DNA of 64,000 bases from the UHGV virus genome UHGV-0373904, one strand, 5' to 3'. The translations under genes and the position numbers were made by a program. Origin of the DNA: a virus. Numbering within the stretch: the first letter of the stretch is position 1; each line of letters begins with the position of its first letter. Below are positions 22,415-29,342 of the stretch, in pieces. Under the pieces are notes generated by a model, which did no database searches, had not been told where the DNA came from, and saw nothing but the letters and a program-made list of their open reading frames with translations.

Positions 22415-22435
22415 GGGGAGGGAATGACCTTCCCC
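22415..22435 (+). promoter_or_regulatory. 5' leader hairpin, class A (copy 1)
   Basis: GGGGAGGGAATGACCTTCCCC then conserved ACTAAATAAA..CTAAACTGGAGATTCAAAAATG. Confidence 0.6.
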
Positions 22436-22467
22436 ACTAAATAAAATCCTAAACTGGAGATTCAAAA

Positions 22468-22656
22468 ATGGCATCAAGAAAAATTAAAGTTGGCGATGAG
22501 GTTAACATTAAGCACGAATACTCTTACAAAATGCTAACTATACGCTCTTATAAGGTTTATCAGGTGGAAGCTATCCACAAGGATAATACTTTTTCCTTAA
22601 AAGGGTATAGCGAACGTTTCCCTGCTGAACTCTTTGAGAAATGGAGCGCGAAATAA
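22468..22656 (+). CDS. hypothetical small protein (array gene 1)
   Basis: ATG 8 nt after conserved GGAGA RBS of the standard leader. Confidence 0.5.
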   Translation: MASRKIKVGDEVNIKHEYSYKMLTIRSYKVYQVEAIHKDNTFSLKGYSERFPAELFEKWSAK

Positions 22657-22862
22657 TGCTTTACAGTCGTGAATTGATGGTTACAACTAACGTTAACACA
22701 AAGGTAAAACGTTTTTACATGCAAATTTGTGGCGTATGGTCCAGAATATCAGAAGCCGACTATTGCAACTATGTAGAAACGGCTATTAATTCTAATTGCT
22801 ACCTTACAAGAAACACTAAGAAATTTACAAGGCAGACAGCGATTTACTACTACGACAAATAA
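22656..22862 (+). CDS. hypothetical small protein (array gene 2)
   Basis: start chosen at ATG overlapping upstream stop (TAATG); track ORF begins at 22641. Confidence 0.4.
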   Translation: MLYSRELMVTTNVNTKVKRFYMQICGVWSRISEADYCNYVETAINSNCYLTRNTKKFTRQTAIYYYDK

Positions 22863-22873
22863 AGTACTTTACA

Positions 22874-22903
22874 GGGGGCTTAAAAGCTGATATCTTAAGC
22901 CCC
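22874..22903 (+). promoter_or_regulatory. intercistronic hairpin, class B (copy 1)
   Basis: GGGGCTTAA-loop-TTAAGCCCC (9-bp stem) followed by conserved AGATAAAGAGCTTTAC..CTAAACTAGGAGATTCAAAAATG. Confidence 0.6.
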
Positions 22904-22950
22904 AGATAAAGAGCTTTACTAAATTAACCCTTAAACTAGGAGATTCAAAA

Positions 22951-23334
22951 ATGGCTTATCGTGCACCGAAATTCATCAACAAAGACAACTTTCGCAACGC
23001 ACTGGAGAAGTCACTTGATGAAAATTTTAAAGGTAACATTATCATTGTTCACGCATTCAATTTTAAGTATGATGTAAACGGGAATAGAATCAACCATTAC
23101 ACGGCAACCATGTTAGATGGTACTCTTTCAAGTGAAAAAGCCATTTTACATGCACTTGCTGGACGTGGTAAAAACCTGATAAAATGTGATAAGAGACGTT
23201 ATCAGGGTGGCGCATATGGTTATGATGATGCTGTTTATCATCTTGAAAATATGGGCTATAAAGTAGAAAAAGCTGGAGTGTCTCAAATAATCGGTAGTGA
23301 TGGTTATGTAACTACCTTCAAAATTAACAAATAA
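22951..23334 (+). CDS. hypothetical protein (array gene 3)
   Basis: ATG after standard leader; C-terminus KINK inside the repeated module. Confidence 0.5.
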   Translation: MAYRAPKFINKDNFRNALEKSLDENFKGNIIIVHAFNFKYDVNGNRINHYTATMLDGTLSSEKAILHALAGRGKNLIKCDKRRYQGGAYGYDDAVYHLENMGYKVEKAGVSQIIGSDGYVTTFKINK

Positions 23335-23356
23335 AGTACTTTACAAGGGGCTTATA

Positions 23357-23385
23357 GTTCGATAAAGTAAGCCCCAGATAAAGAG
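23357..23385 (+). promoter_or_regulatory. intercistronic hairpin, class B (copy 2)
   Basis: GGGGCTTATAGTTCGATAAAGTAAGCCCC; part of a ~95-bp near-identical direct repeat (23321-23420 vs 23701-23800). Confidence 0.6.
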
Positions 23386-23420
23386 CTTTACCACTAAATC
23401 CTAAATTGGAGAACTTAAAA

Positions 23421-23714
23421 ATGGCTATTATCAAAAACGTTGTAATTACCGCAAAGACTCGTGATGACGCTCGTATCATGGCTAAAAAGTTATGCGGGAA
23501 AGTGGTTGACAACGGAAAACAATCTGCTGTAAGGTGGGGCGTGAAGGTTGATAAACAGTTGAAGTTAAAAAATTCACCGATAAACCTTTTTACATGTGTA
23601 AACACTATCGGGAAGACAACTGTATACACGAAAAAGGCATACATTAGACGCGTAGCATTAACATCCCCCATTCGTACAATGAGAAGTTATGCAAAGCTGA
23701 AAATTAACAAATAA
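23421..23714 (+). CDS. hypothetical basic protein (array gene 4)
   Basis: track start 23406 is TTG inside the repeat; ATG 23421 follows the conserved RBS. Confidence 0.45.
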   Translation: MAIIKNVVITAKTRDDARIMAKKLCGKVVDNGKQSAVRWGVKVDKQLKLKNSPINLFTCVNTIGKTTVYTKKAYIRRVALTSPIRTMRSYAKLKINK

Positions 23715-23726
23715 AGTACTTTACAA

Positions 23727-23755
23727 GGGGCTTATAGTTCGATAAAGTAAGCCCC
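23727..23755 (+). promoter_or_regulatory. intercistronic hairpin, class B (copy 3)
   Basis: identical to copy 2. Confidence 0.6.
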
Positions 23756-23801
23756 AGATAAAGAGCTTTACCACTAAATCCTTAAACTAGGAGATTCAAA
23801 A

Positions 23802-27567: not shown

Positions 27568-27909
27568 ATGGCTTATGTAACTGTAATTACCGATAAAGAA
27601 GATTCATCTTGGTCAACTCAAGTCAGTGATAAGATGTCGCCTATGCAGTGCCTAAAATACTTTGAGCAGTGGAACAAAGGCGAGGATGTCAGCCCCTTTC
27701 AAGTGATGCAAATCATCCATACAGATAACGAAGGAAACAAAACGACACTTAATAGCGAGTATTACGCAAATCGTTTTGAGAGTCGAGTTGAAACGATGAA
27801 GGGTCTGCGTGAGGCCGGATATGGGCACATTGCCGCCTTGTTATGGGATAGCCTGCTAAAAAATCAGCGTATCAGCTATGTAAAACCTGAAAAAATATTC
27901 ATCAGTTAA
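27568..27909 (+). CDS. hypothetical protein (array gene 14)
   Basis: ATG after standard leader. Confidence 0.5.
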   Translation: MAYVTVITDKEDSSWSTQVSDKMSPMQCLKYFEQWNKGEDVSPFQVMQIIHTDNEGNKTTLNSEYYANRFESRVETMKGLREAGYGHIAALLWDSLLKNQRISYVKPEKIFIS

Positions 27910-28037
27910 TCAATAACTTACAAAAAACTTTTAAAAAAATGTTGACAATCCCTCTTGACATTGGTAACTTTGTTCGAGGGGGTTTATCTAAAAGGGATTC
28001 ACTTAAAAGATTCTTTATAGATAAACTTAAAAATTGC

Positions 28038-28066
28038 TTGCAATCACTTTCTAAAAATCCTATAGT
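28038..28066 (+). promoter_or_regulatory. sigma70-like promoter candidate
   Basis: -35 TTGCAA, 17-nt spacer, -10 TATAGT; upstream of gene 28108. Confidence 0.4.
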
Positions 28067-28107
28067 ATCTATCAAGCAAAACAACTTCCTAAACTGGAGA
28101 AATCAAG

Positions 28108-28635
28108 ATGAATAAGTTCACAGCAATCAACACTATTCGCTCAAAAGACGTAATGAAAAAGCCTGTCAAGGATACTTTCGAATTTACCCTGAAAGATAAA
28201 ACTTTTGCAGTTATCACGAAAGGGGAAGATAAGAAATATTACATACATCGCCCAAATCAGCAAATGATAACAGCTAACAGCTTTATGAAGGCCGTAGCGG
28301 TTATCCTGCCGGATTATATGGTTATCGTCGCAGAAATTCACGAAATGGCTATCAAGGCGACTAAAAACGAGCTAAACCAATACAAAATGGCTTATGAACG
28401 CTCTATAAAGTCTCATAACCTTTTTATTGCAATTTTCTACACTGGCGTGTCTGCTACTGGTACGGGCAATCAACAACACCCAATCTATGAAGTTGAAAAA
28501 CTGTTTACAAGTGAATACAAAACAGATATCTTTAAAGTAACGTTAGGCAAGGCATTAACAGACTTAATCAAGCTTTACGAAAAATCTTTAAAAAATTTAG
28601 AAAATGCACTTGACGAAACGTTATCAAATCTTTAA
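28108..28635 (+). CDS. hypothetical protein (array gene 15)
   Basis: ORF track; RBS GGAGA. Confidence 0.5.
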   Translation: MNKFTAINTIRSKDVMKKPVKDTFEFTLKDKTFAVITKGEDKKYYIHRPNQQMITANSFMKAVAVILPDYMVIVAEIHEMAIKATKNELNQYKMAYERSIKSHNLFIAIFYTGVSATGTGNQQHPIYEVEKLFTSEYKTDIFKVTLGKALTDLIKLYEKSLKNLENALDETLSNL

Positions 28636-28647
28636 AGTATCTATCAA

Positions 28648-28667
28648 GGGGAAGAAATCACTTCCCC
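28648..28667 (+). promoter_or_regulatory. 5' leader hairpin, class A (copy 5, variant)
   Basis: GGGGAAGAAATCACTTCCCC. Confidence 0.55.
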
Positions 28668-28701
28668 ACTAAATAAAGTCCTTAAACTAGGGGTTATCAA
28701 G

Positions 28702-28965
28702 ATGGAAAACGTAGAATTAACCACACTATTGCAGATTGCAACTGACAAAGAAGATGTAGCACTGTTTCACCGTATCGAAAGCGATTTATTCAATGGTGAA
28801 ATCATCAAAGAATCTTACGAAGTTGTCGGATTCAAAGATGGTAAAACATTTGGATTCTTTGACCTCGAAAAAGGCAACGCTGTTACAAAATATGATGTTT
28901 TATCTTGTGAGATTCTTACAAAATACAACGAAAAAAGGCTTGCAACATACGCCAATATGCAGTAA
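28702..28965 (+). CDS. hypothetical small protein (array gene 16)
   Basis: ATG after leader. Confidence 0.5.
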   Translation: MENVELTTLLQIATDKEDVALFHRIESDLFNGEIIKESYEVVGFKDGKTFGFFDLEKGNAVTKYDVLSCEILTKYNEKRLATYANMQ

Positions 28966-28978
28966 ATTACTAATTAAC

Positions 28979-28995
28979 GGGGGATGACCTCCCCC
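28979..28995 (+). promoter_or_regulatory. 5' leader hairpin, class A (copy 6, variant)
   Basis: GGGGGATGACCTCCCCC. Confidence 0.55.
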
Positions 28996-29029
28996 ACTAA
29001 GTAAAGTCCTAAACTGGAGAATCTAAATT

Positions 29030-29278
29030 ATGTCAACTATCCGCGTAACTGTTAATGCTTATGGCTGCCACGAACTTGATGCAAAATTCGATATCGGTGG
29101 AACAAATAACACCTTTGACCTTATCAAAATGCTGATTCAGCAGGTGCTACCAGATTATAACCCTACCGATGACTTTTGGAAGGACGCTGTAAAAGAAGCC
29201 ATAAACGAGGAATATCACTACCACTACTGGGGAGAAAAAATTGTCTCCCTGTACTACAACAAGCAAGATTATAACTAA
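29030..29278 (+). CDS. hypothetical small protein (array gene 17)
   Basis: ATG after leader. Confidence 0.5.
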   Translation: MSTIRVTVNAYGCHELDAKFDIGGTNNTFDLIKMLIQQVLPDYNPTDDFWKDAVKEAINEEYHYHYWGEKIVSLYYNKQDYN

Positions 29279-29289
29279 TCGACGCAGCG

Positions 29290-29342
29290 GGGCTAAATAG
29301 CCCCAGATACCTGAAAAGCTCCTTCTCATAGGGGCTTTTTTA
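29290..29342 (+). terminator. compound hairpin / terminator closing the small-gene array
   Basis: GGGGCTAAATAGCCCC, then AGCCCC..GGGGCT pairing followed by TTTTTT. Confidence 0.5.

Follow-up and report, generated by a model that had tools for sequence, protein, structure and literature searches.

We analyzed a stretch of 64,000 nucleotides of viral DNA (UHGV virus genome UHGV-0373904; the whole stretch is referred to as the window), which covers most of the genome of a Felix O1-like myophage of the genus Felixounavirus, subfamily Ounavirinae. The subject here is a block of about 7 kb of small, presumably early genes, i.e., 17 open reading frames (ORFs) on the plus strand (w01–w14 and w16–w18), with repeated, hairpin-bearing cassettes of about 90 bases confined to positions 22376–29345. 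Megablast with 22300–29400 returned 258 phage records, nearly all of Escherichia, Salmonella, Shigella or Citrobacter phages of 83–90 kb. The closest, KhF3 and SUT_S920, were about 92–94% identical, and none of the 258 records spanned 80% of the query in one piece. Two intrinsic terminators bound the array, the upstream one directly behind a macro-domain gene (Pfam PF01661). They equal t13 and t23 of phage Felix O1, which bracket its genes 14–23 (PMC3185647). A terminator scan found no canonical terminator within the array, and Rfam 15 covariance models run against 21900–29500 gave no match up to E = 1.

The cassettes fall into two classes, A and B (Table 1). All repeat elements lie on the plus strand and none occurs elsewhere in the window; in the complete relative SeKF_63 they are likewise confined to this one array. 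Three core motifs were counted against dinucleotide shuffles, i.e., TAAAYTGGAG (7 observed, 0.49 in shuffles), CCCCAGATAAAGAG (7 and 0.02) and CCCCACTAARTAAA (6 and 0.04), and for all three no shuffle attained the observed count. An earlier note on this DNA, made from the sequence alone, had assigned hairpins and a common initiation segment to every one of the 17 genes. The standard leader is found at 14 of them but not at w02, w07 and w13; w16 has a promoter and this leader and is without a hairpin in this phage. All six class A hairpins that the note had counted were found in place, each behind a sigma-70-like promoter with a 17-nt spacer. Of its eight class B copies seven are complete elements, and the eighth (29289–29309) is a shortened remnant. 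Each complete class B copy does begin at the preceding stop codon, as had been seen, but the promoter embedded in it had been missed. A repeat given as perfect over about 95 bp (23321–23420 and 23701–23800) is exact over only 83 nt (23320–23402 = 23700–23782); another pair is exact over 100 nt (23331–23430 = 25387–25486). Repeat identity extends into the flanking genes, i.e., into the last codons upstream (w03 and w04 both end in KINK before the stop codon) and the first codons downstream (ATGGCTAT.. in w04, w09 and w10).

For comparison, 35 homologous arrays were gathered from GenBank and IMG/VR, of which 32 could be scored for gene content. Upstream of the class A hairpins (88 distinct sequences), information peaks only at an A-run, at TTGaca (–39 to –34), at TAAATT (–16 to –11) and at ATCAAC just before the hairpin. 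The six copies in the window have the –35 hexamers TTGACT, TTGACA (twice), TAGACA, TTGACG and TTGCAA. The 17-nt spacer between the hexamers is variable and comes in at least seven unrelated backbones. Conserved hexamers around a freely varying spacer would be the signature of a working sigma-70 promoter. From the promoter geometry we infer a start site about 7 nt after the –10 hexamer, at the A of ATCAAC^GGGG, which would place it 2–3 nt before the hairpin. Taken alone, the class A hairpins have folding energies of about –12 to –15 kcal/mol in almost all of the 47 variants, and whole class A leaders reach z of about –3 in five of the six window copies. The commonest hairpin has a G-U pair, which on the other strand is a C-A mismatch.

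In class B, TTTACA is invariant in all 91 distinct copies. Exactly 17 nt after it the loop reads T at position 16 and A at position 17 (90 of 91 copies each), then three unconstrained positions (18–20) and T at position 21 (89 of 91). Position 14, two upstream of the –10 hexamer, is G in 79 of 91 copies and resembles an extended –10 element. A simple promoter scan also flagged these sites in the window. Judged by this conservation, class B is a putative promoter (TTTACA-N17-TAnnnT) embedded in a hairpin, and since it contains a conserved promoter, most genes would have a promoter of their own rather than being simply processed out of one transcript. The hairpin of 59 nt is built in three tiers (5 bp, 1x1 mismatch, 5 bp, 3x3 internal loop, 8–9 bp), with the upstream stop codon included in its base. 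It folds at –20 kcal/mol (z –4 to –5.2; –20.7 kcal/mol and z –4.0 for cassette 1), and no shuffle folded equally well. Pairing holds in 97.8% of cells over 68 distinct copies, which come from three genera, and two-sided changes occur at three pairs (GC/UA 48:12, GC/UA 63:4 and CG/UG/UA 34:32:1). The observed pairing or covariation score was attained by 0 of 500 shuffles, and slid controls stayed at or below 60% pairing. The G-U pairs favour RNA of the plus strand. Promoter and fold thus both appear to be under selection.

The same layout recurs in other genera. Erwinia phage M7 (Kolesnikvirus) retains TTTACA-N17/18-TAnnnT with arms changed from GGGGCTT/AAGCCCC to GGTGTTT/AAGCACC, and in additional variants of this phage the –10 lies between G/C arms, e.g., GGGGG-TTAAAAT-CCCCC. 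The same cassettes are present in Citrobacter phage Mordin (Mooglevirus), in whose annotation a repeat of 14 bp is marked ahead of many ribosome-binding sites. The blastn hits tallied for a class B unit were Ounavirinae or records of Ounavirinae size, plus a few oddly labelled ones.

Both classes converge on a common leader of about 35–40 nt, CCACTAAAT..CC(T)TAAACT(A)GGAGATTCnAAAATG, and 14 of 14 cassettes end in (A)GGAG-N8-10-ATG. The near-identical initiation segment of the earlier note exists, but in two linked forms, CC-TAAAYT-GGAG and CCT-TAAACT-AGGAG, found as CC..GGAG in 227 copies and as CCT..AGGAG in 136, with none mixed. A weak pairing of the Shine-Dalgarno sequence (SD) with the CC(U) ahead of it is predicted, and in Erwinia leaders CCUU pairs with AAGG in the same manner. 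We did not take this linkage for covariation, since sites lying 7 nt from each other can be co-inherited; as a real element the pairing is suggestive only.

Table 1. Features of the array and its boundaries (window positions; –35 and –10 hexamers are given with their spacer length in nt)
Feature	Position	Strand	Details
Upstream array boundary, intrinsic terminator after macro-domain gene	21977..22018	+	17-bp stem, then T-run
Class A cassette 1	22376..22470	+	TTGACT-17-TAATAT 22376-22404; hairpin 22415-22435; leader/SD 22450-22459; ATG 22468
w01	22468..22656	+	62 aa; phrog_15633; in 9/32 arrays
w02	22656..22862	+	68 aa; no cassette; start overlaps w01 stop (TAATG)
Class B cassette 1	22861..22953	+	59-nt hairpin 22861-22919; core 22875-22903; TTTACA-17-TATCTT 22868-22896; leader; ATG 22951
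w03	22951..23334	+	127 aa; phrog_4495
Class B cassette 2	23333..23423	+	core 23347-23375; TTTACA-17-TAAAGT 23340-23368; ATG 23421
w04	23421..23714	+	97 aa; phrog_5089
Class B cassette 3	23713..23804	+	core 23727-23755; TTTACA-17-TAAAGT 23720-23748; ATG 23802
w05	23802..24314	+	170 aa; phrog_4190; Felix O1 ORF16
Class B cassette 4	24317..24407	+	7-bp core variant 24331-24358; TTTACA-17-TATGAT 24324-24352; ATG 24405
w06	24405..24701	+	98 aa; phrog_4401
w07	24695..25027	+	110 aa; no cassette; overlaps w06 end
Class A cassette 2	25024..25120	+	TTGACA-17-TAAATT 25024-25052; hairpin 25063-25083; ATG 25118
w08	25118..25390	+	90 aa; phrog_3436
Class B cassette 5	25389..25479	+	core 25403-25431; promoter-like 25396-25424; ATG 25477
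w09	25477..25881	+	134 aa; phrog_4327; Felix O1 ORF20
Class A cassette 3	25896..25990	+	TTGACA-17-TAAATT 25896-25924; hairpin ~25934-25952; ATG 25988
w10	25988..26185	+	65 aa; phrog_3623
Class B cassette 6	26190..26278	+	core 26204-26232; TTTACA-17-TACAGT 26197-26225; ATG 26276
w11	26276..26527	+	83 aa; phrog_9030; in 10/32 arrays; described as most often missing unit
Class B cassette 7	26530..26619	+	core 26544-26572; promoter-like 26537-26565; ATG 26617
w12	26617..27180	+	187 aa; phrog_3303; predicted ADP-ribosyltransferase fold
w13	27244..27486	+	80 aa; no cassette; always after w12; small GGCCC..GGGCC hairpin 27211-27225
Class A cassette 4	27474..27570	+	TAGACA-17-TAAATT 27474-27502; hairpin 27513-27533; ATG 27568
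w14	27568..27909	+	113 aa; phrog_4318; Felix O1 ORF21
Hairpin-less promoter region	27939..28110	+	TTGACA at 27941; TTGCAA-17-TATAGT 28038-28066; SD TAAACTGGAG 28090-28099; ATG 28108
w16	28108..28635	+	175 aa; phrog_4725; Felix O1 ORF22
Class A cassette 5	28610..28704	+	TTGACG-17-TAAAGT 28610-28638 (within w16 end); hairpin 28648-28667; ATG 28702
w17	28702..28965	+	87 aa; phrog_7022; in 16/32 arrays
Class A cassette 6	28940..29032	+	TTGCAA-17-TAAATT 28940-28968; hairpin 28979-28995; ATG 29030
w18	29030..29278	+	82 aa; phrog_4559
Class B remnant	29289..29309	+	GGGGCTA-AA-TAGCCCC-AGATA; without -35, loop -10 and leader
Terminal intrinsic terminator of array	29313..29343	+	11-bp stem, then T-run

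Array content differs between relatives; the invariance of content that would have counted against the earlier note is thus absent. The 32 scored arrays hold 9–19 genes each, from 31 gene families, and single units of gene plus cassette are present or absent between them. Order is conserved overall, with rare rearrangements in one array each, i.e., w10 and w11 swapped, w01 moved behind w13, and w04 duplicated. Cassette class switches between phages, A in one and B in another, for w03, w10, w11, w12 and w14; at the hairpin-less site before w16 most relatives carry a class A cassette instead. Cassette loop variants are exchanged between positions. We counted 45 distinct synteny breaks relative to the window, and 77 of their 90 endpoints fall within a cassette ± 15 nt, compared with 27.9% expected from the share of the array length that these zones take up (binomial 6e-30). 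After a deletion a single hybrid cassette remains, with an overlap of the flanking alignments of 87–106 nt for B x B events and, in an A x B event, of 41 nt through the shared leader. The cassettes hence mark points of gene gain, loss and swap in related phages, and the comparison supports the shuffling by recombination that the earlier note had envisaged. A distant macro-domain phage (L037) has no comparable cassettes, so the design is not general to DNA downstream of macro-domain genes.

We propose, with a probability of about 0.7, that the region is a hyperplastic early-gene array of portable regulatory cassettes of the promoter-early stem-loop (PeSL) type. It would consist of 14 units of one or two genes, each provided with a host sigma-70 promoter of its own, an RNA hairpin of the G-run/C-run kind and the common leader. 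Given its predicted distance of 2–3 nt from the start, the class A hairpin would cap the 5' end of its own gene's mRNA, most likely as a stabiliser against 5'-end-dependent decay. The class B promoter lies inside its hairpin, so that its own transcripts, with a predicted start at the A of CCCC^AGATAAAG, again about 7 nt after the –10, would lack the 5' arm, and only read-through RNA from upstream would contain the whole 59-nt hairpin. There it could act as insulator, 3' stabiliser or processing site for the upstream message, with a fresh transcript beginning just after. Near-identical direct repeats of 70–100 nt and the 3' module common to both classes would offer a substrate for homologous recombination, by which whole genes could be deleted, inserted, swapped or re-promoted with their expression intact.

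An extension of this proposal, which we consider unlikely, is that the near-invariant leader, i.e., the hairpin, CCACTAAAT and the SD in its weak CC(U)..(A)GG stem, is an RNA operator common to all 14 units, which a single factor would switch together, be it RNase III, a RegB-like GGAG nuclease or a translational repressor. The repeats, more than passive homology in this view, might also serve integrase-free gene capture via single-gene mini-circles between co-infecting Ounavirinae, beside the terminal repeat.

PeSLs were described in the T4-like phages RB49/phi1, T4/PST and KVP40/nt-1 (Arbiol et al. 2010, PMC2839356; Comeau et al. 2014, PMC4122927). Each spans about 100 bp: an AT-rich stretch comes with a sigma-70 promoter and a GGGG..CCCC stem-loop, which can take any of five positions with respect to that promoter, and SD and ATG follow. 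They cluster in hyperplastic regions at insertions and deletions (indels), including degraded half copies, and terminator activity and mini-circles were demonstrated for those of RB49 (PMC2839356, PMC4122927). The architecture found here matches these cassettes, and the design is hence not without precedent. A-rich positions precede the promoters in the 88 class A and 91 class B copies, and an AT-rich stretch with a sigma-70-type promoter is thus apparently present here too; the T4/PST –35, TTTACW, is as in class B. The GGGG..CCCC stem-loop has a fixed place, over spacer and –10 in class B and just after the predicted start in class A, with cassette fold energies of –12 to –21 kcal/mol overall, and the 3' end of the cassette holds SD and ATG of the downstream gene. 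Shared as well are the block of small genes without known function, the indels and replacements at the cassettes, and their proposed role as recombination linkers, and the remnant at 29289 resembles a degraded PeSL half copy. Unlike PeSLs, which occur in several scattered genome regions, the cassettes here form a single array of 14 beside the terminal repeat. Their leader and SD are standardised far more tightly, with identity running into the codons of neighbouring genes. They also come in two discrete classes, of which class B takes the upstream stop codon into its three-tier hairpin. By analogy, we regard the array as the probable Ounavirinae counterpart of the T4-type PeSLs, undescribed as far as we found, of a design so far reported only in T4-like phages. 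The cassette would work like a PeSL without being its homologue. The Felix O1 genome paper reported uninterpreted direct repeats of 57 and 39 bp between genes 15/16, 19/20, 18/19 and 20/21 and did not list array promoters (PMC3185647). A literature search of incomplete coverage found no paper linking PeSLs to Ounavirinae or Felix O1-like phages.

Several points weigh against this proposal. What is said here of start sites, of class B promoter activity and of termination or cleavage at the hairpins is predicted from sequence. The cassettes belong to the Ounavirinae lineage and have no sequence homology to the T4-type elements detectable with blastn. The hairpins of both classes lack a following U-tract, which means that a terminator role as in T4-type PeSLs cannot be taken for granted. 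Greater stability on the plus strand is a modest bias, in 30 of 47 class A and 39 of 68 class B variants. As the class B stems vary little, just three pairs carry the covariation. The array has no intergenic DNA other than the cassettes, so that gene-wise indels must end near them and part of the breakpoint enrichment is expected; moreover, the break and indel events are not phylogenetically independent.

A doubtful though possible alternative is one long early transcript cut at the hairpins in the style of T7 and RNase III, with incidental internal promoters and a leader that serves only uniform translation. The class B hairpin, an irregular helix of about 23 rungs exactly between cistrons and without a U-tract, would suit it. 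Its likeness to a T7-type RNase III site, i.e., an intercistronic helix of some 20 bp that contains an internal loop, is one of structure only; its pairing is under selection with G-U tolerated, and canonical terminators stand only at the ends of the array, one at each. In T7, the RNase III sites of the early genes are likewise irregular, U-tract-free hairpins that lie between cistrons and comprise an internal loop and about two helical turns, but they have no promoters and are not long near-identical repeats, and cleavage here is putative. Processing leaves unexplained the –10-shaped conservation of the loop exactly 17 nt after an invariant TTTACA, the promoter layout kept in Erwinia phages with different stems, and the clear consensus promoters of class A. 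Promoters and processing of read-through RNA are not exclusive and may coexist. Less probable is that the hairpins are Rho-independent terminators that isolate each gene as a promoter-gene-terminator 'moron'; we hold this quite unlikely. Stem-loops of T4-type PeSLs did terminate transcription in lacZ assays (PMC2839356), and the GenBank records KT184313–KT184316 (phages KhF1–3 and XTG1; L001, L006 and L007 in our set) annotate class A sites as terminators. These annotations, however, lie opposite to all local genes, on a strand where no genes run. The terminator scan was empty at these sites, with no T-run after either class on either strand, and a class A hairpin 2–3 nt after its own start cannot terminate that transcript. 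As terminators, the class A hairpins were therefore rejected for wrong strand and missing T-run, and the annotations are likely errors; many array ORFs are unannotated in the same records.

Very unlikely, in our view, is a reading of the inverted repeats as DNA operators, in which a phage or host protein, bound to GGGG..CCCC arms that flank or follow the –10, would turn off all early promoters together. In class B and the Erwinia variants the –10 does lie between the arms, an operator role had also been raised by the PeSL authors (PMC2839356/PMC4122927), and some array genes peak at 5 min after infection. Stem sequence and arm spacing, however, differ between A, B and genera while pairing is kept by compensatory and G-U changes, which fits a folded strand better than a sequence-specific dimer site, and no candidate regulator was identified. 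The exact repeats of 83–100 nt and the array of small cassettes with hairpin repeats might finally be the residue of a recent tandem duplication, a small mobile element or an integron-like attC system instead of a regulatory design. This we consider extremely improbable: the 17 products belong to 17 different PHROG families, so that the array genes are not duplicates, and the cassettes sit at one locus and on one strand, conserved across three genera. No integrase, including IntI, is annotated in the complete relative; with the unrelated proteins, this led us to reject the tandem duplication and integron readings. Lambdoid morons and integron cassettes resemble the units here in being self-contained, small, and free to be added or removed, and attC sites are hairpin repeats as well. 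Morons, however, are single insertions ending in true terminators, and integron cassettes need IntI and have no promoters, whereas the cassettes here carry them.

The proposed role of the class A hairpin has a parallel in the 5'-terminal stabilising stem-loops of the ompA type, reportedly described by Emory, Bouvet and Belasco in 1992. Stabilisers of this kind need a position such as the 2–3 nt from the 5' end that is predicted here, but the class A start site follows from promoter geometry alone.

As the earlier note had stated, most products lack a recognisable motif; in fact, all 17 PHROG families are without known function, and Pfam gave no match for any of the 17 products. For w12, AlphaFold with an alignment confidently predicted an ADP-ribosyltransferase fold, nearest to Tpt1/KptA, toxin A subunits, DarT and Arr, with the conserved residues H5, Y36 and D97. 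Single-sequence AlphaFold was unusable here (predicted local distance difference test score, pLDDT, 35), and a PDB sequence-profile search with w12 gave chance hits only. Just ahead of the array, 21162–21947 encodes a protein with a macro domain, a domain for ADP-ribose binding or hydrolysis. Going by the model, it may form an ADP-ribosylation writer/eraser pair with w12, whose predicted fold would fit loosely with host takeover; a reading of the cargo as anti-defence is unsupported. Next to the cassettes lie homopolymers that are slippage-prone, with 13 A at 25881–25893 and 14 A at 26510–26523; the latter run encodes the KKKK tail of w11, just before the stop.

Published reverse transcription PCR showed Felix O1 ORFs 16, 20, 21 and 22 (w05, w09, w14 and w16) at their maximum 5 min after infection, and ORFs 14, 17, 19 and 23 at 25 min (PMC3185647). 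This timing is consistent with early expression of the array by host polymerase and supports it in part. We found no transcriptome of any Felix O1-like phage in the likewise incomplete literature search.

If confirmed, plug-and-play cassettes of the PeSL type would not be peculiar to T4-like phages and would represent a convergent solution for the carriage as well as the exchange of small accessory early genes. Ounavirinae, with hundreds of sequenced genomes and one compact array each, would make shuffling rates, junctions and limits measurable and would allow dissection of the promoter-in-hairpin design. For about 30 early gene families that are still uncharacterised, and are the obvious candidates for a part in host takeover or counter-defence, the cassettes would in addition define exact limits and the signals for expression. 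Phages of the Felix O1 type see wide use in the typing and biocontrol of Salmonella and E. coli, and the cassettes could serve as natural standardised parts for phage engineering.

At the downstream side, a 581-bp direct terminal repeat defined by PhageTerm is known for Felixounavirus Pr103Blw (PMC8303462; record MW481326). It maps to window positions 29771–30350 at 91.6% identity. The array thus ends about 430 nt before it, at one physical end of the packaged genome. From 29350 to 30950 extends a non-coding stretch of 1.6 kb that is dense in phased motifs of 10–11 bp (CTTGTTAAG / CTGTTAAGA) in both orientations. The terminal repeat maps inside this stretch, and the packaged genome hence probably ends here; the window appears to be a permuted representation that runs through the genome terminus.

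Upstream of the array, between the terminator and the first array promoter, TTTTCATTTTCAAAnnGTGCAGGTA occurs four times within 22016–22200, 39–75 nt apart. Erwinia phage M7 has the same four-copy motif in the same place (L041, 1140–1280), and it could be a candidate regulator-binding or iteron-like element. Three independent assemblies (IMG/VR L011 and L012, GenBank EC106) stop at the C-rich CCCCTCTCCCCCTCTTACTCC at 22244–22246, where contig L012 runs into a Nextera adapter. We considered this site, 130 nt before the first promoter, as the genome terminus and ruled it out, as the PhageTerm-defined repeat maps to 29771–30350. Sequencing drop-out may explain the shared break, as may a nick or an end of the DNA.

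Further away, the window holds 26 transfer RNA (tRNA) genes at 41.4–46.7 kb. Directly upstream of this cluster lies an ORF of 471 aa (39800–41215), whose homologue in SeKF_63 is annotated as an 'RNA-binding protein'. Together with a polynucleotide kinase homologue at 18438–19133, it hints at a module for RNA repair or handling.

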